Source: a virus
Lineage: Duplodnaviria > Heunggongvirae > Uroviricota > Caudoviricetes
Strand: one strand, 5' to 3'
DNA length: 64,000 nt
IMG/VR virus record: IMGVR_UViG_3300029720_000461
In this document: piece after piece, positions 5,833 through 51,400 of the stretch
Layout: each line of letters starts with the position of its first letter
Numbering within the stretch: the stretch's first letter is position 1
Notes under the pieces: model-generated
Seen by the model: only the letters and a program-made list of their open reading frames with translations
Told to the model about the DNA's origin: nothing
Database searches by the model: none
Made by a program: the position numbers and the translations under genes

Positions 5833-6270
5833 ATGAAAATATATGAATATATAGATTTTTTACTTGATAAGAATAATGTAAAAAGTCTTGTACAGATGAA
5901 AAAAAGAAATTATCCGGTGAAAAAAGCTTATGAGCTTGTAAAGCCATATGAGCAGAATGTTAAAGACCTTTCAGCTTTTAAGGCAGCATTTGAAACGGGA
6001 TATGAACTTATTAATGATGAGCCGGATTGCGTATTTGAGATAATGGCAGAGCTTTATGAAAAGTATGAAGAAGGCTCAGTTATGTATGGTTACACGGCAG
6101 TAAAAAAAGAAAAATACACAAGGAAAAAGAAAAATAAAGATAAAGAAAAAATATCTGAAACTTTGGTTGAAGTATATATAAATCCTGATGATGACAGCTT
6201 AAAAAATGTATTAAAAAAGCATTTTACTGTTGTTGAAGAAACAGAAGAAAAGCTGATGCTGAAAAAATAA
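5833..6270 (+). CDS. hypothetical protein
   Basis: The listed ORF begins at a GTG; the ATG at 5833 has an AAGGTGA RBS. Confidence 0.5.
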   Translation: MKIYEYIDFLLDKNNVKSLVQMKKRNYPVKKAYELVKPYEQNVKDLSAFKAAFETGYELINDEPDCVFEIMAELYEKYEEGSVMYGYTAVKKEKYTRKKKNKDKEKISETLVEVYINPDDDSLKNVLKKHFTVVEETEEKLMLKK

Positions 6271-6287
6271 TCAGAATATAACTATAA

Positions 6288-6329
6288 AAAGAACTGTATG
6301 CTGTATGTTAGTGTATGGTTCTTTTTTGT
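6288..6329 (+). terminator. putative rho-independent terminator
   Basis: aagaac...gttctttttt hairpin plus a T-run right after the 6270 stop. Confidence 0.35.
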
Positions 6330-6382
6330 TATATAAAATAATACAACATAACACAAAATAACAAAAAAATAATGTAAAATAG

Positions 6383-6411
6383 TTGACATTGAACAAATCT
6401 TATGATATTAT
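6383..6411 (+). promoter_or_regulatory. sigma70-type promoter (TTGACA-17-TATTAT), copy 1
   Basis: ttgaca, 17-bp spacer, tattat; the element gttgacattgaacaaa is near-identically repeated at 9190. Confidence 0.5.
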
Positions 6412-6476
6412 ATATACAGTTAAAGAAGTAAGAAAAAAGCCTTTTTAAAATATATTATTGATTAAGGAGTGTTATA

Positions 6477-7249: not shown

Positions 7250-7318
7250 ACATCCGTGGTGTAATAGTAACATGACAGTTTCCACTGTAAGCTGAAGGTT
7301 CAAGTCCTTCCGGGTGTG
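7250..7318 (+). tRNA. tRNA-like, probable pseudogene (aberrant anticodon arm)
   Basis: Acceptor acatccg/cgggtgt, D stem gtgt/acat, T arm gaagg-ttcaagt-ccttc; the only good anticodon-arm pairing acagt/actgt leaves a 4-nt loop (ttcc); total 69 nt. Confidence 0.4.
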
Positions 7319-7440
7319 CTTTAAGGATATAACACTTGATATATCTGACAGTACTTAAAGATATTAAAAAGTGTATCGTGAAAGCGAAAGGGAAAATGTG
7401 CAAATAAGACCCTTATACGATTGCAATATATCCTTAATAA

Positions 7441-7511
7441 TCTGACTTAGTTTAATGGCAAAACACTGGCTTTGTAACCCAGTAATGTGAGTTCGATTCT
7501 CTCAGTCAGAA
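7441..7511 (+). tRNA. tRNA-Thr(TGT)
   Basis: Acceptor tctgact/agtcaga; anticodon arm ctggc-tttgtaa-cccag (anticodon TGT); T loop ttcgatt; T stem has one mismatch. Confidence 0.6.
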
Positions 7512-9190: not shown

Positions 9191-9219
9191 TTGACATTGA
9201 ACAAAAAGTATGTTATTAT
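9191..9219 (+). promoter_or_regulatory. sigma70-type promoter (TTGACA-17-TATTAT), copy 2, ahead of tRNA island
   Basis: Near-identical to the 6383 element: ttgacattgaacaaa...tattat. Confidence 0.45.
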
Positions 9220-9779: not shown

Positions 9780-9852
9780 GGTTCTTTAGCTCAGTTGGTA
9801 GAGCATCCGGCTCATAACCGGAAAGTCTTAGGTTCGAGTCCTAGAAGAACCA
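9780..9852 (+). tRNA. tRNA-Met/fMet/Ile2 (CAT)
   Basis: Acceptor ggttctt/aagaacc; D arm tagctcagttggtagagca; anticodon arm tccgg-ctcataa-ccgga; T arm ttagg-ttcgagt-cctag. Confidence 0.8.
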
Positions 9853-10010
9853 CTGCTATATAGCTTTGGCACGAATAAGTTATATGGCACTGTTGTTTGA
9901 CTTTTTTTGTCATGTTTGAAATACAGATATTAGAAAGAACATTTTGCTGGGTGTATCTGTATTATTCTACTAGCAAATGAAAGTGTTCGGTAGAATCTTC
10001 TTTCTTTTAT

Positions 10011-10084
10011 TGGAATGTGGTCTAATTTGGTAAGGCGCTTGATTTGGGTTCAAGAAATTGTCGGTTCAAATCTGGTCATTCCAA
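10011..10084 (+). tRNA. tRNA-Pro(TGG)
   Basis: Acceptor tggaatg/cattcca (perfect); anticodon arm cttga-tttgggt-tcaag; T stem relies on G-U pairs. Confidence 0.65.
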
Positions 10085-10185
10085 CTAAAGCTTGTCACTT
10101 ATTAAATGCAAATAATACCTTTAAAAGGGAGAATAAAACTATGAGTGATGGATATGGATTGCTATTTTAATTAAGGAGACATGTT

Positions 10186-10698: not shown

Positions 10699-11001
10699 AT
10701 GATTATGAGTAATTGTGGTCTTGTTGTAAATAAAAACGATATTAACACATACTTTCAAAGTTTTATTAAACCTAGAATTTTTGACGCTGAATGGCATATA
10801 AGCTTAGCGTCAGATTTTCTTAATATAATTGATAAAGATGAATTTAAGTTAGATGATTTATGTAATCCTAAATACATAAAAGATGTTCTTAATGATAATA
10901 AAGATAATGAATACACTAAAGCTGTCCTCTATAGAAAAAATCCTGAAATGTATATATCGGGAATATTTAGATTGTATGATTTATACTTAAAGAGCAAATA
11001 A
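10699..11001 (+). CDS. hypothetical protein (paralog of 12829..13131)
   Basis: Shared motif D..FHI.LA..FL..ID.DE ... PE.YIS..F with the 12829 ORF. Confidence 0.5.
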   Translation: MIMSNCGLVVNKNDINTYFQSFIKPRIFDAEWHISLASDFLNIIDKDEFKLDDLCNPKYIKDVLNDNKDNEYTKAVLYRKNPEMYISGIFRLYDLYLKSK

Positions 11002-11092: not shown

Positions 11093-11165
11093 GGATTGTA
11101 AGCTAACTCGGTAGAAGCGTCTGTCTGAAGAACAGAAGGAATTGGTTCGACACCAATACAATCCA
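11093..11165 (+). tRNA. tRNA-Phe(GAA)
   Basis: Acceptor ggattgt/acaatcc; anticodon arm tctgt-ctgaaga-acaga; T arm attgg-ttcgaca-ccaat; overlaps and invalidates the minus ORF 11030..11224. Confidence 0.8.
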
Positions 11166-11284
11166 TTAGCACTGCTGAAGTGGTTGTAAATGTAATTGTC
11201 TGAGTTCTTTACAATCAGGTGCAAAACAAAATCAGATATATCAGACTATTTCTTCAGCAATATATATCTGATTATATTAAATAA

Positions 11285-11813
11285 TGCGGGATAGAGCAGT
11301 TGGAAGCTCGCAAATGTATTATTTAAGTAAAGGAGAGGTATGTTTCATGGATTCTCCAAAAAATATGGGAAACAAAGCAGAGATAGTTGTTATATCAGAA
11401 TTTATTAAAAATGATATACCTGTTTCAATTCCTTTTGGACAAAATGAACCATATGATTTAGTAATTGATACAAAATATGGATTTAAGTCTGTTCAAGTAA
11501 AACATGGAACTTATAGAAATGGTTGCGTTGTTGTAGATATAAGACATCGAATAGGATATTCTAAAATAGAATATAGTACATATGATGGCAAAGCTGATTA
11601 TATCGCAATATGGTGCGAAGAATTAAATACTTGCTATTTATTAGATATTAAAGAATGTAATGGAAAAACCAATCTTAGATTAAGAATTGATAATCCTAAA
11701 AATAATTCTTGCATTTCAACTATAGTTTGGGCTAAAGATTATGAATTTTCTAATAAAGTTCTTTTACTAAAATAATACATTTGAGGTCACAGGTTCAAGT
11801 CCTGTTCCCGCTA
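11285..11813 (+). tRNA. interrupted tRNA gene (5' half 11285-11315, 3' half 11779-11813) split in the anticodon loop by a 463-bp ORF-bearing insertion
   Basis: 5' half has canonical geometry: acceptor tgcggga, U8A9, D arm gagc-agttggaa-gctc, G26, anticodon-stem strand caaat. 3' half: atttg, variable aggtc, T arm acagg-ttcaagt-cctgt, acceptor tcccgct. The two anticodon-stem strands extend into a perfect 12-bp helix caaatgtattat/ataatacatttg. Confidence 0.5.
11347..11775 (+). CDS. PD-(D/E)XK-like nuclease (Hjc/endonuclease-like) encoded inside the tRNA insertion
   Basis: Motifs EPYDLVID ... KSVQVKHG (PD...(D/E)XK spacing); AGGAGAGG RBS 8 nt upstream; fills almost the whole insertion. Confidence 0.45.
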   Translation: MDSPKNMGNKAEIVVISEFIKNDIPVSIPFGQNEPYDLVIDTKYGFKSVQVKHGTYRNGCVVVDIRHRIGYSKIEYSTYDGKADYIAIWCEELNTCYLLDIKECNGKTNLRLRIDNPKNNSCISTIVWAKDYEFSNKVLLLK

Positions 11814-11859
11814 CTGGTTGTTCCCCGACAGCCTATTTAGATTAAATATAAACACTCGT

Positions 11860-11933
11860 TCTGATTTAGTTTAATGGTAAAACACCTGTAGTCAAATACG
11901 GGAGATTAAGGGTTCGATTCCTTTAAGTCAGAA
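11860..11933 (+). tRNA. tRNA (paralog of tRNA-Thr at 7441) with 8-nt anticodon loop; identity uncertain
   Basis: Acceptor tctgatt/agtcaga and D arm near-identical to 7441; the best anticodon arm cctgt-agtcaaat-acggg has an 8-nt loop; one extra nt between T stem and acceptor. Confidence 0.4.
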
Positions 11934-11939
11934 TCGGTG

Positions 11940-12830
11940 ATGTCGGTATTATTATTGAGAAGTTGCTTGCAATAGTCAGTAATAGTATTGGATAAGCCGT
12001 AATAAAAAAATAACAGATACCCTAGTGAAGAAGGGCTGTCACCCTGCTAGGACATTCTTAGAGTAGTCTGTATTAAGAAGGATACCTTTTAATATAGGAT
12101 TTAAGTGACATTATAATTGATAAGTCCACTACTTATTAAGAAGATGGAGCTTGAAGGTTACGGAAAGTACCAATAGTTAGGAATGGTGTATCTATACAGT
12201 TTAATATAATGCCGCAACAGTGTGGGGAGAGCAATAGACGCTTGAGAAGAGAAGAACCTTAAGTCTTAGTCTTGTGGTGGGATTGAGCAGCTTAAGGAAT
12301 ACCAAACAATCTCCTTCGCTATGATGTTGTAGAAATACAACTATAACACACAGCAGCGGACAAGTAGCCCATAGGCGTGAAATGAGAAATTGGATGAATT
12401 AAACCAATATAAAATTCTGAATGATGGGTGAAAGTTGCAGGTAGAAAATCCTGTCATAGCATTGGGGAGAAATCCTGTGGTAAGAAGTTTAGAGGTCGCT
12501 CCTTTAAGCTCAGACTTATCATCTATGTAGCATAATAATAGCGGACTGTATAGGATAAGGCGAAAGCCTATCTGTTTTTATAATATTAGTCCTTTTGATT
12601 TAGGTTCTAGTTCCGTAAGGAGTATGGGTTCGACTCCCATAGAGGGCATTCACCTTAGCTCAATTACAATAAGTCTTAATAAGTAGCTATGATGACGATT
12701 ATACTGAAAATTTAGAATAGTTGTATACCTTTTGGGTGATTGACTATAGCGGTATCCATTTGTAGAGCAACCCCTTGTTGCGGGGTAGTATTCGGTAGAA
12801 GTCCGAGGGTGATTTATAAGGAGAAAATAT
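11940..12830 (+). ncRNA. candidate large structured non-coding RNA (GC-enriched, ORF-free block beside tRNAs)
   Basis: About 890 nt with no ORF of 60 aa or more on the gene strand, visibly higher GC than flanks, many GNRA-like and paired segments, a tRNA-like T arm plus acceptor-like 3' end (atggg-ttcgact-cccat agagggc) at 12615-12647. Confidence 0.25.
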
Positions 12831-13131
12831 GAAACTAACAAAGAAACAAATAATTGAATATATGAATAAATATATTCGAGGGTATTTATATGATGCTGAT
12901 TTTCACATATGTTTAGCAACAGAGTTTTTGAAATTGATTGACTGTGATGAAGTTGATATTGTTGAATATCAGAATATACCGTTAATTTTGCAGGTTATAT
13001 CTGAGCATAGTGAGACAGAAACCGCAAAATCTATTCTATGTCGCAAAACGCCTGAGTTGTATATTTCAGCATTGTTTGCAACATTAGAAAGACGTATCAA
13101 TGAGTATATTAATATGACGAAAACAGTATGA
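12829..13131 (+). CDS. hypothetical protein (paralog of 10699..11001)
   Basis: AAGGAGAA RBS; shared motifs with the 10699 ORF. Confidence 0.5.
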   Translation: MKLTKKQIIEYMNKYIRGYLYDADFHICLATEFLKLIDCDEVDIVEYQNIPLILQVISEHSETETAKSILCRKTPELYISALFATLERRINEYINMTKTV

Positions 13132-13178
13132 GTAAATCCTATAAAAACCCGGATATACATTAGAATTAAGTATTATTT

Positions 13179-13251
13179 GTGTCACTAGCTCAGTTGGTAG
13201 AGCATACGACTTTTAATCGTAGGGTCACGGGTTCAAATCCCGTGTGACACA
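13179..13251 (+). tRNA. tRNA-Lys(TTT)
   Basis: Acceptor gtgtcac/gtgacac; D arm gctcagttggtagagc; anticodon arm tacga-cttttaa-tcgta; T arm acggg-ttcaaat-cccgt. Confidence 0.8.
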
Positions 13252-13494
13252 CTTAATCCGGTACAGGATGCAGATTATAAAAGCAGAATTGTATTGGATA
13301 TCAGTGGAAATCTGAATTATTAAGTGCAATATGTAATGGGACAACGTATTGTATGATAGCTGTGATAATCAGTATTTGCGAACAAAGAACGATGGGAAAA
13401 ACATGTCAGCAGGTGCAGGGTAAGTGTGCATAGCTTATCACAGAGGTTTCGATACCAAAGGGCATGTTTTCGTTCATTCCCGAAAGGAGAAGAT

Positions 13495-14073
13495 ATGTAT
13501 TATTTACTGGATTATGAAAATATTGGTTCGTTAGGGCTTAAAGGGATTGACAGCCTTACAGATAAAGATATTGTGTGTATATTTTATTCAGAAAATGCTC
13601 ATACAATTGATTTGGAAGCAATAGAAATGTTTAAGAGTACAAAGGCGGCAGTCAAATACATAAAAGTAAAGAAAACCGCACCGAATTATGCAGATTTTCA
13701 GATTGTTACCCTTACAGGCTTAATTTTAGGAAAAGACAGTAAAGAAAAGGTTGCAATTATAAGCAATGATAAAGGCTATGTAGCAGTTATTGATTATCTT
13801 AAGGAAGACTGTGTAACAGGAACAAACAGAATAATTGAGCTTGCATCTACAATTGCAGATGTTAAAGGAAGTAACAGAAAAATAGAAAACAATGATTTAA
13901 AACAGAATCATAATTTCTATGATATTAATGATAAGAGAGTGAAAAATGTCATAAAAAGAAGTACAAATAAAGGTATGCTGAAATTAAACCTTATTGAAAG
14001 CTTTGGACGAATAGACGGACTTGAGCTTTTTAACAGACTTGAAAAAGATTTCAGACCTAGAAAAAGAGTGTAA
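13495..14073 (+). CDS. NYN/PIN-like domain protein (putative RNase)
   Basis: ATG at 13495 with AAAGGAGAAG RBS; N-terminal YLLDYENIG and later ISNDKGY resemble the NYN (LabA-like) acidic motifs. Confidence 0.4.
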   Translation: MYYLLDYENIGSLGLKGIDSLTDKDIVCIFYSENAHTIDLEAIEMFKSTKAAVKYIKVKKTAPNYADFQIVTLTGLILGKDSKEKVAIISNDKGYVAVIDYLKEDCVTGTNRIIELASTIADVKGSNRKIENNDLKQNHNFYDINDKRVKNVIKRSTNKGMLKLNLIESFGRIDGLELFNRLEKDFRPRKRV

Positions 14074-16825: not shown

Positions 16826-18712
16826 ATGGATAAACAAAAATTTACTTATAAAGTATATGATGCTAAAACAAGAAGCTTCATATATGAAGAGGATTTCACA
16901 AGTGATAATCCTTTTAAAGATATAGCAGAACGGATGAGTAAAGAAGACATATCACATGGGAGTCTTTATATCGTGGCAGAAAATGAAAACGGACAGGAAG
17001 CTGCATATACGATTGTAAAGAAAAGTGGTACAAAATTCGTTAAGTATGAACATTGTGATTTTCCTTTATCATATATAGATTTTGATATTGAGCCAAGATA
17101 TCTTACATGTATTGATGAAGTGTATAACCACTATAAGTATTATGAGATAACCTTTGATAAGGATAATTTAAGGACAAATGTAAGATATGGACGTATAGGT
17201 GCTGATAAGAATGATACATTTGGTGAGCGTGAATATGATTATCCTTTATCTATGTACTGGGTTAAATATTATGAGAAATTGTCAAAAGGCTATGAAGATA
17301 AAAGTGAACTTAAGGATTTTGATAACAGGCAGAAAAAAGGAACTGAATATGAACCTGTTAAGGATAAATACTCAAAATCACTTATTGAGTTCCTTATAAG
17401 AAAGCAGAAAGACTATGTTGAAAGTAATTATTCAACCGGTGCAGCATTTTCAATGGAAGCTGTAAAAAAATCTGAAAAGATACTGGAAGAGTTAAAGGCA
17501 TATGCTGATTCATCATTTTCAAATAAACAGTTTAAAATAAGAGAACTCTTTAAGGAGCTTGTAACAATATTGCCAAGAAGAATTGCAGATGTATCAAACT
17601 ATCTTAATTATATAACAGGTTTAAGTTCTGAAGCTTTAATGGAACATATTGAACAGGAAGAAGACCTGCTTAATAACTTTAAGGACTTATATGTTAAAAA
17701 AGAAAATGAAGCTGAAGAGAAAGCTGATAATAAAGACATACTTGAAGCTAATAATTTAACAGCCACATGTACGGATTATAAAGACATACATATGATAGAA
17801 GATAAGCTTGATAAAGATATGGCGGCAATGAAGACAGTATTAGCTGTTAAAAATAAATATACTAATGACCGTTACATAGCATGTAAAAAAGAAAAAGGCA
17901 TTGAGAACAGGGGATGTCATTTATTATGGCACGGAAGCCGTACAGAAAACTGGTGGAGTATATTTAAGAATGGTTTAACACTTAATAATAACGCAATAGT
18001 AACAGGAAAGATGTTCGGACAGGGATTATACTTTGCTCCTAAAGCTGAAAAGAGTATGAATTATACATCAAGTTTAGGAAGCTATTGGACAGGCGGTAAT
18101 GATAAAACTGGCTTTATGGCGTTATATGCAGTTGCTATGGGTAAACCTTATGAAATTGACCATGCACTTAGTTCATATTTTACTGAAAAGGATTTAAAGC
18201 ATGGCTGTCATTCAGTATGGGGAAAAGCAGGAAGACATTTAAGAAATGATGAATGCATTATTTATGATGAAAGACAGTGTGACATTAAGTTTTTGCTTGA
18301 GGTTGACAGGGAAAGAGAAAAGTATCTTACACCTGAATTTATAAAAGCTGCAAGGAATATAAAACTCAATCAGTTAAAAGCAGATAAAAACGGATTAAGA
18401 GCTTATATGAGCTTAAGAACTCCTGACAGTACTTTTAGCAGACTGAATATGGATAAAAATAATAAAGTCGAATTTATTTATACTTATGATAACACACTTA
18501 CAATCAAGACATATGATAAGGAACTTAAATCAAGTGAAAAGGAACTTAAATTTAATTCATATCAGACTGATTATCTTAAAATGATGTTTAAAGAAAATTT
18601 CACTTCTAATGACAGGGAATTTGATATGTTACTTGAAGAAAAACAGAAGGAAGTACAAAAGCCAAAGACTAAAGTAAAAAAGAAAGAAATTGAAATGTCT
18701 CTGCTTGCATAA
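16826..18712 (+). CDS. WGR-like + PARP-catalytic-domain ADP-ribosyltransferase
   Basis: N-terminal YYEITFDKDNL...VRYGRIGAD (WGR-like); catalytic H-Y-E signature: LLWHGSRTENWWSIFKNGL, GQGLYFAPKAEKSMNYTS, NDECIIYDERQCDIKFLLEV (cf. PARP1 HGS / GIYFA / NEYIVYD). Confidence 0.75.
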   Translation: MDKQKFTYKVYDAKTRSFIYEEDFTSDNPFKDIAERMSKEDISHGSLYIVAENENGQEAAYTIVKKSGTKFVKYEHCDFPLSYIDFDIEPRYLTCIDEVYNHYKYYEITFDKDNLRTNVRYGRIGADKNDTFGEREYDYPLSMYWVKYYEKLSKGYEDKSELKDFDNRQKKGTEYEPVKDKYSKSLIEFLIRKQKDYVESNYSTGAAFSMEAVKKSEKILEELKAYADSSFSNKQFKIRELFKELVTILPRRIADVSNYLNYITGLSSEALMEHIEQEEDLLNNFKDLYVKKENEAEEKADNKDILEANNLTATCTDYKDIHMIEDKLDKDMAAMKTVLAVKNKYTNDRYIACKKEKGIENRGCHLLWHGSRTENWWSIFKNGLTLNNNAIVTGKMFGQGLYFAPKAEKSMNYTSSLGSYWTGGNDKTGFMALYAVAMGKPYEIDHALSSYFTEKDLKHGCHSVWGKAGRHLRNDECIIYDERQCDIKFLLEVDREREKYLTPEFIKAARNIKLNQLKADKNGLRAYMSLRTPDSTFSRLNMDKNNKVEFIYTYDNTLTIKTYDKELKSSEKELKFNSYQTDYLKMMFKENFTSNDREFDMLLEEKQKEVQKPKTKVKKKEIEMSLLA

Positions 18713-38466: not shown

Positions 38467-39645
38467 ATGTTTGATAAGAAAAATAAAACATCTGATACAA
38501 AAGAAAATTCAACAGACAAGGAATTTGCAGCATTAAAAGAAAAAGACAAAAACAATCAGCAGGATAAAATGTCTATTGAAGAATTAATTAACAACATAAA
38601 AGATACATTATTTATAGAACTTACAGAAGAGATGAATGATGATTCAATTACTGATATAGAATGGGATGGTGACTGTCTATGGCTTAAACAGATAGGCACA
38701 GGATGTTATTTATCGCCTAAAAAGTTGTCAAAAAATTATGTTGATAACTTGGCAATCCGTTTAAGTAATATCATGGGAAGAAATTTCAATCAGGCAAACC
38801 CTGTACTGGAAGCAGATACAAAAACACTCCGTATATCAATTACACATGAAAGCAGAAGTGGGAAAAAATCAATTACAATCAGAAAGCTGCCGGTTGTAAT
38901 GAGATACGGACATGAAGATTTGGTAAATGCAGGAACTATTCCTGAAAAGCTTCTGAATCTTTTAGAAAACTGTGTAATAGCACACTGCACCGTGCTGATA
39001 GGTGGTACACCACAGGCAGGAAAGACAGAACTGCTTAAATACCTTACCAACTTTATACCGGCAAATGAAAAGGTTATGACAATTGAAGATAATTCAGAGA
39101 TTCATTATAAGGAGCTTCATCCAAATAAAAACTGTACGCCGTTTATCGTTGATAAAAGGTTTGGATACTCAGAGGCTATCAAGATGTCTTTAAGGCATAA
39201 CACCGACTGGGTACTGATTTCAGAATCACGAGGCAAAGAAGTTAAGGAACTGATTAACGTACTCAATACAGGTCTGCATTGTATGACAACCCTTCATCTT
39301 GATGAAGTAAGTGATATACCTGACAGATTATTTAGTATGCTTGAAGACCAGAAGAACAGCAGATTTATTGATAACGTATATAAATACATTGATGTTGGAC
39401 TTGTAATTGCTGTTGATAAAAAGCAGGAAAGAAAAATTATTGATTTTGGCTTTTTTGAGCGTAATGAAACAGGCAATCATTACAGACCTTTTTATAACAT
39501 AGATGACGGAGTAATTCCTGAAAAGGACATGCTTCCTGAAAACATGAAGAAGATATTTAAAAGGGCGGGAATAGATAATCCATATGAAAGACCAAAAGCT
39601 TGTGCAGGAGCAATACCGGTAGAAAAGGAAAGGAGTGCTGAGTAA
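38467..39645 (+). CDS. CpaF/TadA/VirB11-family secretion ATPase
   Basis: Walker A GGTPQAGKTE; TIEDNSEI (Asp box); His-box-like region; family-typical N-terminal domain. Confidence 0.7.
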   Translation: MFDKKNKTSDTKENSTDKEFAALKEKDKNNQQDKMSIEELINNIKDTLFIELTEEMNDDSITDIEWDGDCLWLKQIGTGCYLSPKKLSKNYVDNLAIRLSNIMGRNFNQANPVLEADTKTLRISITHESRSGKKSITIRKLPVVMRYGHEDLVNAGTIPEKLLNLLENCVIAHCTVLIGGTPQAGKTELLKYLTNFIPANEKVMTIEDNSEIHYKELHPNKNCTPFIVDKRFGYSEAIKMSLRHNTDWVLISESRGKEVKELINVLNTGLHCMTTLHLDEVSDIPDRLFSMLEDQKNSRFIDNVYKYIDVGLVIAVDKKQERKIIDFGFFERNETGNHYRPFYNIDDGVIPEKDMLPENMKKIFKRAGIDNPYERPKACAGAIPVEKERSAE

Positions 39646-41201
39646 TGGAAGGAAATATAAAAACAACATATGATAATGATAAAAAGCCTAATCTGTTTGA
39701 AGAAAAACTGGTGCAGATATTACATTATTTTTCATTCAAGCAAATGAAGAAAGATATCTATGATTACGGATACAGCATTTCACCTTTTAAATATTTCCTT
39801 GGATTTGTGGTCGGAATAATTCTTGTTGCAGCATACTGTATATTCAGTAAGCTTGATTTTGTATACATAATATTTGAAATTGTACTTCTGATATGCCTTA
39901 TGCCATTTATAGTAAGAACGAAATTTAAAGGAATGTATCAGGAAAAAAGATTTAATGAAGTTGATATATACCTGCATCAGATGATTTTTTCATTTCAGAA
40001 GCAGCCTAAAATATTATCTTCATTGGAAGATACAGAGAAGGTAAGTACAGGAAAGTTAAAAAATGTAATAAGAAAAGCAATAATCTGTTTAAGACAGACA
40101 GAAGCAGCGGATGCATATGAAGAAGCTCTTGATATCATATACAAGGCATATCCAAATGACCGAATAAAAAACTTAAATAAGTTTATGATACAGATTGAAA
40201 GACAGGGCGGTAATTATGGAACTTCACTTGATATTCTGCTAGGGGATATTGATAACTGGGTAAACAGAACATATAAGGAACAGACAACTGTTAAAACAAT
40301 AAAGACCACGATTGTTATAGGAACAATAATAAGTTTTATCATTTCCAGTGCAAGTATGATATTTTCAATAATAATACATTACAATGATACCATGTCAATT
40401 ATGAGTTTAGGAAATCTTGAAGACATATTATTATATCAGGTAACTACTGCTATATTTATAGCCGCAAGTATGCTGTTTTTAATATATGCCTTTACAAAAT
40501 ATAATTATGACTGGATTACAAAATCGGTTGATGAAAAAAGCGTTCTAAGAAATTACAAAAACGCAACAGACTTTAATCCGACAGTTTTCAGAATAAAAAG
40601 CATTCCTGTATATCTTGTATTTGCGTCTGTGTCATTGTCAATGTTTTTTATTAATGCAGTACCGTACAACAAAGGAATATCTGTATTTTTAGGTATATTT
40701 ACATTTTATCTTATAATCAGTCCGTCATTTACCAAAAAGAGTGCTTATAAGATAACACAGAAAAATATACAGAACTCATTTTCAGAGTGGTTGAGAGATG
40801 TATCAATTAATCTTCAGAGAGAACCGTTATTATCAGCTGTAACAGACAGCTATGAAAACTGTCCTGTCGCAATAAAGCCGGAGCTTGAAATATTTATCAG
40901 ACGAATACAGGAAGAGCCTACGGCAGTTGAACCGTATTATGAGTTCTTGGCTAGATTTCATTTAACTGATGTATCAAGTGCCGTGCGAAATCTTTATTCA
41001 TTGTCAGATATGGATGATGAACGTAAGGAAGAAAACCTTGGACAGCTCACAAAGCGTAATTATGCAATAATTAATGACAATGAGATAAAATCAATGAATG
41101 ACACAACATCTGCAATGCGTTTTTCTGAATACATACCAGTGTTTATTGCATGTGGAAAGCTTGCATTTGATATTATGAATCTTTTGGAATGTATGATGTA
41201 A
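39645..41201 (+). CDS. TadB/TadC-like (T2SS-F family) polytopic membrane protein
   Basis: 518 aa, several TM-helix clusters, directly downstream of and coupled to the CpaF-like ATPase. Confidence 0.45.
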   Translation: MEGNIKTTYDNDKKPNLFEEKLVQILHYFSFKQMKKDIYDYGYSISPFKYFLGFVVGIILVAAYCIFSKLDFVYIIFEIVLLICLMPFIVRTKFKGMYQEKRFNEVDIYLHQMIFSFQKQPKILSSLEDTEKVSTGKLKNVIRKAIICLRQTEAADAYEEALDIIYKAYPNDRIKNLNKFMIQIERQGGNYGTSLDILLGDIDNWVNRTYKEQTTVKTIKTTIVIGTIISFIISSASMIFSIIIHYNDTMSIMSLGNLEDILLYQVTTAIFIAASMLFLIYAFTKYNYDWITKSVDEKSVLRNYKNATDFNPTVFRIKSIPVYLVFASVSLSMFFINAVPYNKGISVFLGIFTFYLIISPSFTKKSAYKITQKNIQNSFSEWLRDVSINLQREPLLSAVTDSYENCPVAIKPELEIFIRRIQEEPTAVEPYYEFLARFHLTDVSSAVRNLYSLSDMDDERKEENLGQLTKRNYAIINDNEIKSMNDTTSAMRFSEYIPVFIACGKLAFDIMNLLECMM

Positions 41202-45425: not shown

Positions 45426-48400
45426 ATGAAATTAAAGAGAACTTTTAAGACACTGTTAATGATAATCGCAACAGTAATGAGTGTTGTATCAGGCATACTT
45501 ATTGATTCAGGAACACTTGCATATGCAGCCACGACTTATACCTTAACGCTTAACTGGGATGATGGTGTTGAATGGGTTGCTACTGATAAAGATGGTATTT
45601 ACAGGTGGGAAAAAGGCGGTTCAAAGACATTTCAGGCAGGTTCTAAGGCTTATACTTATGTCAAGCTTAAAAATGGTGCAACAGTCAAATCATTCTTTTC
45701 AAGGCAGGAAAATAAAGACTGGACTGATTATACATATACGTCAGGAAGCATATGCTATGATACATGGACAATGTACAATAACAGAAACGTGGACATATAT
45801 ACATCTGTATCATCTTCAGCAGATGTGTCTTATGACTGGGATAACCTCGTAACAAGCTCAAAACATTATCATTCAAGCAATGGAAATGAAGCATCTTGGA
45901 GTAATTTAAGGGATGACCTTGGAAGGTCTCCTGCACCGATTTATTCAATTTACTATAAGCTACAGGAAAATAGGTACAGGGAAACCTGCTATGGAGATAA
46001 TCAGGAAGATAAAGACTTCGGCGGTTATGAAATAATGTTAAGGACAGAAGACAGCCATAACAGTTATTGGTATGGACAGTCCTCATATGCAAATGGAGAT
46101 AGATTTGACGACTGGTACAGGGATGAATTTGAAGGAATAAAGCTTTCAAATCTTGCAATTGTACCTGTCCAGATAAAGGGAGATAAGTTTTTACAGATTA
46201 ACATAAGCGTTAAGAACACCAATTCATATGCAAAAGAAATATCACTGGCAACATGCAGTGATATACAGGTTGCAGATGATGATAATGCAGCTACATTCTT
46301 TAATGGTAACGGCTTTACAATGACAAACATGTACTGCGAAACATCAGACAATTATCATGGTGGCACAATTCCTGCGGCAACACTTAATGTATATGCGAAG
46401 GATGTACCGGGATATGTAACTGATGCGGATGCAGTATATATAGGACATTTTGTATACAGAAAAGAGCATGTATGGTTAAACAATGTACTTGGTGATAAGG
46501 CAACGAATTATAACAAGTATAAGCATGGCGGAACATCAGGAGAAGGTGAATTGGATTCAGGTTTTTCAATTGCATGGAAGAACAGAACAATTGCAGCAGG
46601 TCAGACACAGACTTACAGCTACATCATAGGCATAGGAAAGTACAATTCAGATAATAAGATAACATTTAATGCAAATGGTGGAGAATTAAAGACTCCGGGA
46701 ACAAGCATCAATAACCCAAGCGGAAATTACAGTAATAAAGTTACGGTAACATATGGTACAGATACATATTCATCAATGAGTAATGATATACCAGAAAGAG
46801 CAGGTTATACATTTGACGGATGGTGGACAACACCTAATGACAGCAATGCAAGCGTAATGGTATATGATGCATCAGGAAAATGTAATAATGACTGTAATTA
46901 TTGGAAAAATAATCAGTGGCAGGGAACTAATGATTTAACCGTATATGCACACTGGAAAGCAAACACATATACAGTACGTCTTAACACAGGCGATATCCCG
47001 TCATCAGAATTGACAAAACTGACAGAAACAGCATCAACTGAAGGATGGACATGGAATGAGAACGGCAGATATTTTTCAAAGGCATTTGTACAGAATGAAA
47101 ATAATTACCTTCCGGGAGTAAATAAGTTCTTCAGTGCTAATAATTATGAATCAGTAGGCAGTAAAGTAACAGACAAGTATTTTGTACAGGATAAGACAAA
47201 GAATCCTACCAAGGTATTGTATAACTGGTGGACATCAGCATCAGGTGGTACTGATATAGGCAGGGGAAAAAAGATTTATAACAACTTGTATGAGATATCA
47301 AAGGACAACAGTGGAATTGTTAATCTTTATCCGCACTGGATGGGATATACAACAGTGTTTAATTACACAGACAATGCCCCTGCTAATACAGCCGGTCTAA
47401 CGGTAACAATCAACAACAGCATTAATGATGGCATGGATAACTGTCTGTATCAGGTATATGGAAGCTGTTTCTTTTATAAGGGAACAGACGGCGAGTATCA
47501 CGATTATGAAGGTACAAATCCTGACTTAAAGGTAACAGCAAGTATTCCAGACAGTAACGGATATAAATACATCTTTAATGGCTGGCATCATAAAAACTGG
47601 AATTACCTTACAGATGGATTAGGAAAGCTTACATATAAGAATAATTATAATATCGGACAGGGTAAAACTTCATACAGTTTATCACCACATTTTTCAAGAG
47701 TAGGAATTAATTATAACGTAAGACTTAACGCAAATGTACCTGATACAGAAAGTACATTACAGGTACTACATCAGAATGGAATATCATCATACATTTACAA
47801 CAGCACTAGCAGATACTTTTCAAGAGAACTTACATATGATGATTCGCAGGATATGTTATCACCTGACGTATATTCACTTAAGGGATATCATTTGGTAAGC
47901 AGAAGTAACTGGTATACGGAAAAAACAGGTGGTAATACAGTATTAGCACCATGCAATAATACGGAAGCAGAATATCCGGACTGGGCTGAAAACAACTGGA
48001 ATCTTACAACTGAAGATGGAGCAACAGTAGACCTGTATGCAAGATGGCAGGCAAATAATTATAAGATAGCATACAACTTAGATGGTGGTACATATGGTAC
48101 ATCACATCCGACAAGTGCAGACTATGATACAATGGTAACAATAGATAACCCGTCAAAGGCAGGTTATACATTTACAGGATGGACAATTACAGGGTATGAC
48201 AGTACTGCTTCAGGACACAATGCATCTGCATGGACAGAAGAGACTGGTACATCTTATAAGAATTTAACTGCAACAGACGGAGCAACAGTTACATTTACTG
48301 CTACATGGAAAAAGGAAGCTCCTAAGACAGCTAATTTACAGACAACAGGTGATGTGGGAATAAAAGCAACATCACATTCTGATAAGACTGTTGTAAATAT

Positions 48401-51400
48401 TGGAAGCCATGTACAGGTAAGTGCAGTTCTTAATACCGGTTATGTATTTAAGGGATGGTACAATGGAAATGTTAAGGTATCTGATGATTTAAGCTTTGTA
48501 TATACAATGCCTAATAAAGATACGATACTTACAGCTAAGACAGAGATTAAATGGTATACAATGACATTTGACCCAAATGGCGGTATATTAAAGAATCCCG
48601 GTAATAATCTTTATAATGCAGAGTGGAAGAATGGAAACACCGTGTCAGTTGGATGGAATATAAACGACTTCTGTTACATGAATGGTGATATACCAACACG
48701 AAAAGGCTACAGATTTACAGGCTGGTATCTGGGAAGTGAAAGCGTATATAATAAGTACGGAATAGCAATAAAAAATTCAAGCCTTTACAGTTATGATACA
48801 GATTATCATTGGAGATATGATGGAAATGTAACAGTAAAAGCAGGATGGGATGCTATAAATTACAAGATATCATACAAAGTAGTCACTGGTGCAGGAAGCA
48901 TACCTTCACAGACAGTACATTATGGTGATTCATTCACATTGGCAGATGGAAATGCATTTACATATACAGGACATACATTTAGCCACTGGTATGTAAGACG
49001 AAGCTCTGATAAGAAAGTATTCTGTTATGATGGTAACTGGCATACTACAGATGGAAGTGACTTGTATGGTTCAGATGTTTCAAACTGGTATCCGTATAAT
49101 AATAGTGGACTTACATTTGAAATGAATGATTCATGGATAAGAAGTGACATAGATGCAGATGAAGAATTTGTTTTCTGGGGATTCTGGGCAGCAGATGAAT
49201 ATAATATCATTTATAACTTAAATGGTGGTACATTAAATGGTAAGACTAATCCAGATACTTATAATATAGAAACACCTACATTTACACTTAATAATCCAAC
49301 AAGAACAGGATATATATTTGCAGGATGGTGTGAAAGTAAAGATACATCATATGTATATAACAGAAATGCTAATGAAGTTATTAAAAAAGATGAGTCAGAT
49401 TCAACATCCTGCTTTATCCCTGAATGTTATGCGTCTTTAGATTACGCACCAGTATTTGACCCTGCATATTATCTTGCAAAATATCCGGATTTAAAATCGG
49501 CATACGGAGATGATGCAAATAAAGCATTAAGCCATTTTGTAAAGTACGGAATGAAAGAAGGTCGTCAGGGTTCAGCAGAATTTGAAGTGAATGCATATAA
49601 AGCCAAGTATAAAGATTTAAAAGATGCGTTTGGTGATAATTTGCCGAAATATTATATACACTATATACTGGCAGGCAAATCAGAAGGAAGAACGATATCA
49701 CAAGCATCAATTAGTATATATCAGGGAAGCATAGGTAACAGAACTTATACTGCTACATGGACACCTATTAATTATACAATCAACTATGACCTTAATGGTG
49801 GAACAGTTGCGGTAAGTAATCCTACAAGTTACAATATTGAAACACCTACATTTGCTCTTAATAATCCTATCAGATTAGGATATGTGTTTGCCGGATGGAC
49901 AGGCAGCAATGGTACTACACCACAGAAAAATGTAAGTATATATAAAGGCAGTACAGGAAACAAGTTTTATAAAGCTAACTGGACAGCGGCAGATGTAGGA
50001 TATACCGTTAATCATTATGTAATGGATATAAATGGTAATTATCCAAGTACACCTACAAAGACAGAAAGACTGTCAGGATTTACGGATACTTCAGTTACAG
50101 CAAAAAGATTAAGCCTTGGAAACGGATTTACTTATCCTGATGTACAGACTGTAAAAATAAAAGCAGATGGAACTACGGTAGTAAAATATTACTATACAAG
50201 AAACAAATACACATTAGACCTTAACGGACTTATAAATGGAACACTAAGGGGAAATCTTGTAGACGTAGTAAAAAATCCGATAACAGGAGCAGAAGACAGA
50301 CATACAGCCGGTACAGCGGTTGTTACTGTAAATGGAACTGTTGTAGGAAATAAAGTCACTGATTACTGTAATGAAGTTTACTATGGAAGCAGTATAAGCA
50401 TTATCACAACAGCTGAAAGCGGATATAATATTATTGATAACAGTAATGTAAACTTTAAAATGCCGGCTGAAGGCAAAACTGTAACAGTTACAATAAATGC
50501 AAAAGATACCAAGTATCTTGTAAGGCACTGGAAGAAAAATGTTAATACTGACAGTAAGACTTATAATGAAAACAGTTTAAATGACAGCAATTATACAATG
50601 TATGATGCTGAATATTTAAACGGCAAGGCATACAGCTGGGTAAAACCTGTTGTAAGGACACTGGAAGGATTTACATATAAAGGAGTTCTTCCAAGTGAAG
50701 GAACGGCTTATGTGAAGCCTGACGGTACAACAGTAATTGATGTGTATTATGCAAGAAATACATATACAATAAATGGTGGTAACGTAAATGCCAATGTTGA
50801 ATATGGTAACGGAATAAGCAGTGTAAGCGGATTAAAGACATATGAATATGAGCAGAAGGTAACACTTACGGCTAATTTAAAAACAGGATATCACTGGCAT
50901 GGTACAGATAAATGTGCTTCATCAGGTAAGTATCCTACAGGCTGGTATAGCAGAAACAATTCAGGTGTTGACGGCATCTTAACAGACAATACAACATATA
51001 ATTCACAGACAATTAAGTTTAATATGCCTGCAAGAAATGTTTATCTTGGAGTTAAGGCTACAAACAACAGCTATACGGTTGTATATAATAAAAATCAGCC
51101 GGTAGAGCCTAAGTCAATAAGTAACGTAACAGGAAGCACTGAAAGCCAGACATTTATTTATGATGAGAGTCAGAATTTAAGGAATAACGGATTTACTCTT
51201 ACAGGTTATACAAGAAAGTCAGGCTGGATGACAAAGCCAAGTAAGAACGGTAATGGAACAGCAGATTTTTCTTACGGACAGTCTGTAAAGAACCTTACAA
51301 CTGTTAATCTTGGTACGGTTAATCTTTATGCAATATGGGAAGACAATGCACCGGAAGAGATTAATATAAGCAGTACAAATAATTTTGCAGCCGCACAAAC

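Follow-up and report, generated by a model that had tools for sequence, protein, structure and literature searches.

An intact ROOL RNA among the tRNA genes of a large gut mobile element

ROOL RNAs (Rfam family RF03087; Weinberg et al. 2017, PMC5737381) are found near the tRNA islands of phages and prophages (PMC12286853; PMC5737381), and they are known from both phages and plasmids (PMC5737381; PMC5643018). The env-120 ROOL from cow rumen (PDB 9MDS; Kretsch et al. 2025, PMC12286853) was resolved by cryo-electron microscopy (cryo-EM) as a hollow homo-octameric cage with D4 symmetry, joined by bridges B1–B6, and ROOL homo-octamers form at nanomolar concentrations (PMC12286853). As related in a commentary on Ling et al. 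(PMC12515178), two further ROOLs are also octameric in vitro, and 3′ fusions, including a suppressor tRNA precursor, leave the octamer undisturbed. A 520-nt long noncoding RNA from the megaplasmid of Lactobacillus salivarius UCC118 (Cousin et al. 2017, PMC5643018) is also a ROOL, and this RNA is stable and more abundant than 16S rRNA (PMC5643018). Like ROOL, GOLLD is a large ornate RNA located by the tRNA islands of phages and prophages, and it too assembles, as a 14-mer, into a cage made of RNA only, whose internal linker is disordered (PMC12286853). Here, we analyze a 64,000-nt stretch of DNA from the IMG/VR virus record IMGVR_UViG_3300029720_000461 (the window, with all positions counted from its first nucleotide), and we describe an intact ROOL RNA that it carries on the + strand, within an array of tRNA genes.

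The window's ROOL matches the whole family model and shares with env-120 and the RF03087 family the motifs CAAUAGACG, UUCUGAAUG..GUGAAAGUU and GCUCAGAC, the terminal GCGAAAGC hairpin, a multi-junction fold closed by helix P1, an identically placed variable linker, complementary B1, B4 and B6 sequences, and a tRNA-adjacent position on a mobile element. The env-120 linker is disordered and lies inside the cage, and its equivalent here is 12373–12421. The two RNAs differ in length (593 nt here versus 659 nt in env-120), and the window's ROOL has a 30-nt expansion at 12113–12142, unlike env-120. The bridge sequences also differ, with GUCA/UGAU here versus AAUC/GAUU in env-120 at B1, and UGGUG/UACCA versus GGUA/UACC at B4. 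A small env-120 hairpin between the B1 strand and the following helix is missing from the window's RNA, and consequently the B1 strand here overlaps that helix by two bases.

The ROOLs of Enterococcus faecalis and Firmicutes bacterium CAG:227, likened here by their description in the commentary on Ling et al. (PMC12515178), belong to the same family and also come from gut Firmicutes. The engineered 3′ tRNA-precursor fusion that the commentary describes mirrors the natural junction between ROOL and a tRNA, or a tRNA relic, found in one close relative and in the window; the 3′ element here is a natural deletion derivative of a tRNA-Leu, in contrast to the engineered fusions. The UCC118 megaplasmid is also a large extrachromosomal element of a gut Firmicute and, as in that case, plasmid-like genes accompany the window's ROOL: a CpaF/VirB11-type ATPase, a T2SSF-type platform protein, DUF932 and a PIF1/Dda-type helicase. 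Expression of the UCC118 ROOL has been shown, whereas the window's copy is known from its sequence and sits inside a tRNA array. GOLLD has an unrelated sequence and secondary structure.

Identity, extent and relatives of the RNA

The whole window was scanned against Rfam 15 at gathering thresholds, and positions 11150–13600 were rescanned permissively at E ≤ 1. ROOL was the sole non-tRNA match in the whole window at gathering thresholds, with a score of 331.6 bits (gathering score 99.1, E = 1.2e-75) and an untruncated alignment to model positions 1–574 of 574. The permissive scan reproduced this match and added only a sub-threshold tRNA match at 12589–12648. Judged by this match, it is almost certain that 11997–12589 encodes a member of the ROOL family (Table 1). 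The ROOL here is intact and adds a further example to a known RNA family, and its identification is routine with a standard Rfam scan. The first-pass annotation of this DNA, made from the letters and their open reading frames (ORFs), had proposed a ROOL- or GOLLD-class large RNA beside tRNAs, and the full-length match with tRNAs on both sides bears out ROOL, its leading guess.

That annotation had flagged the block 11940–12830 as richer in guanine and cytosine (GC) than its surroundings, free of plausible ORFs on the gene strand, and dense in complementary segments and GNRA-like tetraloops. All three descriptions hold. The block's GC content is 37.5% (37.6% for the ROOL core) versus a window mean of 31.2%; across 891-nt windows the standard deviation is 3.1%, and 2.8% of the windows are equally GC-rich. 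Stop codons number 24, 27 and 31 in the three + strand frames, none of which has an open stretch longer than 51 codons. The sole listed ORF touching the block is an antisense, TTG-started ORF of 89 amino acids (12650–12919), located on the strand opposite to all convincing genes of the window. In the Rfam alignment the block is rich in helices and GNRA loops, including GAAA at 12332–12335 and at 12562–12565.

The block as a whole is not one structured RNA. The structured RNA is confined to 11997–12589, and its flanks are a spacer with a hairpin (11934–11996), a tRNA relic (12589–12648) and the leader of ORF 12829–13131 (12649–12828). The tRNA-like tail that had been ascribed to the block's RNA is present at 12624–12648, comprising ATGGG (12624–12628), TTCGACT (12629–12635), CCCAT (12636–12640) and the acceptor-like remainder AGAGGGC (12641–12647) with A12648, but it belongs to a separate, internally deleted tRNA-Leu gene outside the large RNA.

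GenBank phages and PLSDB plasmids contain no nucleotide match to the block. Relatives were found only when IMG/VR and GTDB genomes were searched for the invariant ROOL motif TTCTGAATGNNNNGTGAAAGTT; this yielded 122 loci, and an nhmmer search with the window sequence matches 108 of them. Only two are close relatives: L071, on a 244-kb IMG/VR contig, and L097, on a 106-kb contig of a human-gut Clostridia metagenome-assembled genome. Both are 92–94% identical to the window over 11783–12578, with ROOL scores of 331.9 bits (L071) and 328.9 bits (L097). The nhmmer scores inside this three-member clade are 511–524 bits versus at most 72 bits for all other ROOLs. Many of the distant ROOLs are near-identical copies in ~38-kb Streptococcus-type viral contigs. 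Elsewhere in the collection, a single 402-kb viral contig (IMGVR_UViG_3300032167_000002) carries two ROOL copies (L035 and L049), and another locus (L050, IMGVR_UViG_3300045988_182662) has a tRNA with anticodon CUA, of the amber-reading type, 106 nt downstream of its ROOL.

Table 1. Coordinates of the ROOL RNA, its parts and the neighboring features in the window
Feature	Position	Strand	Basis or remark
ROOL RNA (RF03087), full length, 593 nt	11997–12589	+	Rfam covariance-model match
Closing helix P1, 5′ strand (partner 12570–12586)	12003–12018	+	Rfam alignment; AU-rich
Loop GUCA, pairs with UGAU 12422–12425; B1 kissing-loop equivalent	12038–12041	+	motif mapping
Loop UGGUG, pairs with UACCA 12300–12304; equivalent of conserved kissing loop B4	12275–12279	+	
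GAAA tetraloop, equivalent of env-120 G364–A367	12332–12335	+	B2 A-minor donor
Variable linker	12373–12421	+	long hairpin-loop region of Rfam model
UGAU, B1 partner strand	12422–12425	+	within invariant UUCUGAAUG...GUGAAAGUU motif
Loop UCGCU (L18)	12496–12500	+	G12498-C12499, counterpart of the self-complementary B6 pair G565/C566 of env-120
Terminal GNRA hairpin AGGC-GAAA-GCCU	12558–12569	+	directly before P1 3′ strand
Candidate sigma-70-type promoter for tRNA/ROOL array	9191–9219	+	TTGACA, 17 nt, TATTAT, with TG; 11/12 consensus matches
tRNA-like gene	7250–7319	+	same-strand tRNA array
tRNA-Thr	7441–7511	+	same-strand tRNA array
tRNA-Met	9780–9853	+	same-strand tRNA array
tRNA-Pro	10011–10085	+	same-strand tRNA array
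tRNA-Phe	11093–11165	+	same-strand tRNA array
Non-canonical tRNA-like gene, 63 nt upstream of ROOL	11860–11933	+	same-strand tRNA array; ARAGORN tRNA-???; 39.2 bits to Rfam tRNA
Spacer hairpin, 16-bp stem and 4-bp apical stem	11943–11991	+	between tRNA-like gene and ROOL
tRNA-Leu(UAG) relic	12589–12648	+	starts at ROOL's last aligned base
Intergenic leader of ORF 12829–13131, outside ROOL	12649–12828	+	L071 homology
tRNA-Lys	13179–13252	+	same-strand tRNA array

Fold, inter-subunit bridges and alternative readings

We transferred the Rfam consensus structure onto the window sequence; of the 156 model pairs present there, 124 are canonical in this alignment. Covariation was assessed on a MAFFT alignment of 16 non-redundant ROOLs instead of a covariance-model alignment, and the figures are therefore conservative. 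Under the Rfam structure, 64.0% of cells are paired versus 52.5% in column shuffles, double-change cells number 350 versus 182, and the covariation score is 0.338 versus 0.158. The observed values were reached by none of the 500 shuffles, and the structure beats every slid control. Several helices are 85–100% paired with compensatory changes; the terminal hairpin (helix 31) is 100% paired, with both sides changed in three of its four pairs. The invariant columns across these diverse sequences (AAUAG, AGUAGC, UUCUGAAUG, GUGAAAGUU, UCAGAC and CGAA) are all found in the window. At the level of sequence, the ROOL fold is supported by covariation among 16 homologues. The Rfam match and the covariation are both present and a coding gene is absent, in keeping with the structured RNA that had been proposed.

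The three-member clade records the same constraint over a shorter distance. Relative to the window, 3.5% (L071) and 4.8% (L097) of the paired columns have changed, compared with 9.8% and 10.2% of the unpaired columns, and L097 contains two GC-to-AT compensatory changes. The variable linker cannot be aligned among distant homologues and carries a small hairpin, UUGG...CCAA; it differs even in L071 and L097, with stems UUUUG/CAAAA and CAGU/ACUG in place of UUGG/CCAA.

We located the bridge residues of the env-120 octamer (Kretsch 2025, Supplementary Tables 1–2) by local sequence motif and not by env-120 numbering, because the env-120 sequence as extracted from the supplement's PDF has 650 nt instead of 659. 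At B1, the four pairs are formed in 95.3% of cells across the 16 sequences, with covariation among UA, AU and CG, and 37 of the 38 distinct loop and partner combinations from all loci are complementary, versus a mean of 19.5 and a maximum of 28 when partners are shuffled. At B4, the window's pairs are complementary (U-A, G-C, G-C, U-A and G.U), and reading other family members by eye yields GAGA/UCUC, GGAG/CUCC, UAGCA/UGCUA and UGGC/GCCA. The L18 loop that contains the B6 pair lies in GGUCGCUCC, which is conserved in 9 of the 16 aligned sequences, and the B2 tetraloop was mapped by aligning GUGGAAACAU against GUAGAAAUAC. The complementarity at B1, B4 and B6 is compatible with cage assembly, and formation of an octamer by this ROOL is likely.

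Three points count against this account of the fold and its bridges. In the model's alignment, pairing of P1 is poor (43% across homologues), and in the window its register has to be moved by one base; with that shift, 11999–12018 and 12570–12589 form 15 of 20 standard pairs by eye, including AACAGAU (12012–12018) with AUCUGUU (12570–12576). At B4, the column count on the MAFFT alignment is only 54%, because MAFFT misaligns the register, and the covariation there rests on the reading by eye. The UGAU strand of B1 overlaps two pairs of an Rfam helix (12371–12372/12424–12425), and the two pairings compete.

If the RNA were a decaying, non-functional ROOL remnant, unable to fold or assemble, one would look for damage, and some is visible: the alignment leaves 32 of the 156 model pairs non-canonical, and the neighborhood includes a tRNA-Met gene split by an endonuclease, an internally deleted tRNA-Leu and two tRNA-like genes with abnormal anticodon loops. 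Yet the match is full length without truncation, no conserved family motif and no bridge complementarity has been lost, and many of the non-canonical pairs fall in AU-rich P1, where the one-base shift restores pairing. The structure is also kept in all three relatives, since paired columns change two to three times less often than unpaired ones and GC pairs have been replaced by AT pairs in compensation, which argues against a decaying relic. We consider this reading very unlikely, and an intact ROOL remains our interpretation.

Readings of the block as something other than ROOL fare worse still. A large, GC-enriched, ORF-free and tRNA-adjacent block might also suggest GOLLD, a transfer-messenger RNA (tmRNA), a group I or II intron or an RNase P RNA, and the T-arm-like element on its 3′ side could recall the tRNA-like domain of a tmRNA; GOLLD, tmRNA and the introns had in fact been named among the possibilities in the first-pass annotation. 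None of these families has a match in the window at gathering thresholds or in 11150–13600 at E ≤ 1, ARAGORN found no tmRNA, and the T-arm element has its homologue in the 3′ portion of an intact L071 tRNA-Leu, making a different large RNA extremely improbable. Just as negligible is the idea that the block is protein-coding DNA or a cis-regulatory leader of the downstream gene 12829–13131. Its final 180 nt do lie directly upstream of that ORF, whose ATG at 12829 is preceded by a good ribosome-binding site (AAGGAGA), and they hold a small GC-rich hairpin (CCCC-UUGUUGC-GGGG). But the number of + strand stop codons excludes a long open frame, the tRNA relic sits between the ROOL core and the ORF, and the L071 homologue of 12649–12768 lies 2 kb from the ROOL, after the tRNA-Leu, which indicates a separate module; 12649–12828 is 73–79% identical to the DNA downstream of that tRNA-Leu. 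The ROOL RNA ends before this leader begins.

The ROOL flanks, the tRNA array and the host element

The tRNAs of the array all lie on the ROOL strand, with small ORFs interspersed among them. Across the family, a tRNA is found within 1.5 kb at 51 of 108 ROOL loci, and of these 207 tRNAs, 205 have the same orientation as ROOL. Immediately upstream of the window's ROOL, the anticodon arm of the tRNA-like gene 11860–11933 folds either with a 6-bp stem and the 6-nt loop GUCAAA or with a 5-bp stem and an 8-nt loop. The gene is kept in both L071 and L097, and L097 has three compensatory changes in the anticodon stem while the loop is invariant; this conservation and compensation imply that it is maintained by selection despite a loop that departs from the standard 7 nt. 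Its role may be that of a handle for processing or of an unusual decoder. The gene is paralogous to the tRNA-Thr at 7441–7511. A second tRNA-like gene, 7250–7319, scores 52 bits against the Rfam tRNA model; ARAGORN assigns it a two-base anticodon, and its fold has a 5-bp anticodon stem with a 4-nt loop, which is too short.

Between the upstream tRNA-like gene and ROOL, the spacer hairpin has a predicted folding energy of −22.8 kcal/mol (z = −5.47), and 0 of 200 shuffles fold as well. It is present in L071 and L097 and absent upstream of most distant ROOLs. A strong upstream hairpin was considered as a general ROOL feature and rejected, as it is confined to this clade and only L077 shows something similar elsewhere.

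At the other end, the element beginning at the last aligned base of ROOL is a tRNA-derived relic and not a tRNA. It retains the acceptor stem (GUCCUUU/AGAGGGC), the anticodon loop, the 3′ anticodon strand, the variable arm, the T arm and the discriminator, and compared with the intact L071 tRNA-Leu it is without the D arm and the 5′ anticodon strand. Its score against the Rfam tRNA model is 23.1 bits (E = 0.099), under the gathering score of 29, and ARAGORN makes no call. The relic's homology to the intact tRNA-Leu(tag) of L071 (6232–6313) runs from the anticodon loop to the 3′ end, the two being near-identical from GATTTAGG on, and window positions 12597–12768 match L071 positions 6262–6435. 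In L097, an intact tRNA-Lys begins directly at the ROOL 3′ end, while in L071 the next tRNA lies 166 nt past the ROOL match, or 187 nt from the terminal hairpin. As a rule for the family, a tRNA abutting the ROOL 3′ end was rejected: the distance from terminal hairpin to tRNA ranges from 12 to 1164 nt among 24 non-redundant loci.

Several further features of the array stand apart from the ROOL. A tRNA-Met-like gene (11286–11813) is split into a 5′ part (11286–11310) and a 3′ part (11784–11813) by an insertion (11311–11783), which replaces the 17-nt anticodon stem-loop of the intact tRNA-Met-like gene in L071 and L097. The insertion is closed by a perfect 14-bp stem (11311–11324/11770–11783) that encloses a ribosome-binding site and ORF 11347–11775, whose product is a PD-(D/E)XK endonuclease of PF11645 (E = 7.8e-26). 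PF11645 is the family of I-Ssp6803I, which lies in a group I intron of tRNA-fMet. Homologues of the endonuclease (52–60% amino acid identity) lie inside tRNA-Met-like genes of four other viral contigs (L123/L127, L124, L125 and L126), each insert being flanked by complementary anticodon-stem strands, and L123 still shows the arrangement CUCAU, insert, AA. A group I intron model found no match in the endonuclease inserts, which are almost all ORF. Either homing has occurred repeatedly and destroyed the tRNA gene each time, or the insert is an intron without a recognizable ribozyme.

Two paralogous 100-amino-acid ORFs in the array, 10699–11001 and 12829–13131, share the motifs DA.(W/F)HI.LA..FL..ID and (Y/C)RK.PE.YIS; neither has a match in Pfam, and 12829–13131, the only one of the two scanned against PHROG, has none there. 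A 242-nt ORF-free stretch of ~38% GC (13253–13494), between the tRNA-Lys and a PIN7-domain gene (13495–14073), has a predicted folding energy of −61.7 kcal/mol (z = −3.0); it matches nothing in Rfam and lacks a homologue among the loci retrieved.

Every convincing gene of the window is on the + strand. Their products, assigned with PHROGs and Pfam, include two Dda/PIF1-type helicases, an integrase-like protein, the PIN7 protein, an IS-type transposase, guanylate kinase, an EAL protein, a flotillin, DUF932, a transglycosylase and a PARP-like protein with a WGR domain. The last is a 628-amino-acid protein (16826–18712) that combines WGR with a poly(ADP-ribose) polymerase catalytic domain (PF00644, E = 1.7e-22). 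At 38467–41201 lie genes for a CpaF/VirB11-type ATPase and a T2SSF-type platform protein, and after them comes a gene (45426–53267) for a 2613-amino-acid surface-type protein with Listeria-Bacteroides repeats. No capsid, portal or terminase was found in the 64-kb window with PHROGs and Pfam, and the element may consequently be a plasmid or a conjugative element. IMG/VR files the closest relative as viral and the best matches of the ATPase are unannotated "Bacteriophage sp." faecal contigs, but conjugative plasmids very commonly carry ATPases of this family. The host may be described as a large gut mobile element, phage or plasmid, and not confidently as a phage.

Expression, processing and role

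We propose that ROOL is probably co-transcribed, on the + strand, with the surrounding tRNAs and small ORFs of the array. The candidate promoter at 9191–9219 could drive this transcript; the other best + strand promoter-like site is at 6383–6411, and a terminator scan found no terminator-like site flanking ROOL on the + strand. The 5′ end would be freed by tRNA-processing enzymes acting at 11860–11933 and possibly also by cleavage of the spacer hairpin, a possible RNase III site. The 3′ end would come from cleavage by RNase P at G12589, where the tRNA-Leu relic begins. For bacterial RNase P, an acceptor stem stacked on a T stem-loop is a sufficient minimal substrate, and therefore the relic could still direct cleavage at 12588/12589 without its D arm. 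We rate a route through tRNA-processing enzymes as evenly balanced between right and wrong.

The released RNA would fold into the multi-junction ROOL architecture closed by P1, as its sequence indicates. Eight copies could then assemble, through B1, B4, B6 and A-minor contacts, into a hollow, D4-symmetric, RNA-only cage, a step for which the evidence here is complementarity, and the variable linker would lie inside it. Speculatively, the mobile element might use the cage to contain or scaffold cargo related to translation, for example tRNAs or ribosomal subunits; the authors of the ROOL structures suggest that it encapsulates tRNAs, ribosomal subunits or other cargo. Our confidence in any specific cellular role is low.

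Against this proposal stand four considerations. The window contains 50 promoter-like sites versus 45.9 expected in shuffled sequence, which is no enrichment. Both the promoter and the processing sites are ones that we infer. A tRNA abuts the ROOL 3′ end only in L097 and L002 and, as a relic, in the window, and the arrangement is not family-wide. Deletion of ROOL in L. salivarius produced no clear phenotype (PMC5643018).

A bolder idea concerns the tRNA-like pieces around ROOL, namely the conserved 5′ tRNA-like gene with a non-decoding anticodon loop, the strong hairpin, and the 3′ tRNA or D-arm-less tRNA-Leu relic. In this clade they may be kept for the sake of ROOL, as dedicated handles through which RNase P, RNase Z and RNase III set the ROOL ends, or as a 3′ tRNA-like module that stays attached; we regard this as improbable. 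If the 3′ module did stay attached, eight tRNA-like arms would be exposed at the surface of the cage, as happens with engineered 3′ fusions, and the cage could be a multivalent tRNA mimic or decoy, or a docking device for co-transcribed tRNAs.

The additions that are specific to this locus, comprising the B1 covariation, the tRNA-derived junctions and the conserved non-decoding tRNA-like gene, are leads and not discoveries. Few natural RNAs are known that form large cages without protein, and ROOL is one of them; its inter-subunit kissing loop B1 shows covariation throughout the family. To that family the locus adds a divergent three-member clade (the window, L071 and L097) from a large human-gut mobile element, and the close relatives make selection on the ROOL fold directly visible. 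Its flanks, with a tRNA-like gene and spacer hairpin on one side and a tRNA or its relic on the other, yield testable predictions on how ROOL ends are formed and on whether tRNA-like modules travel together with the cage.

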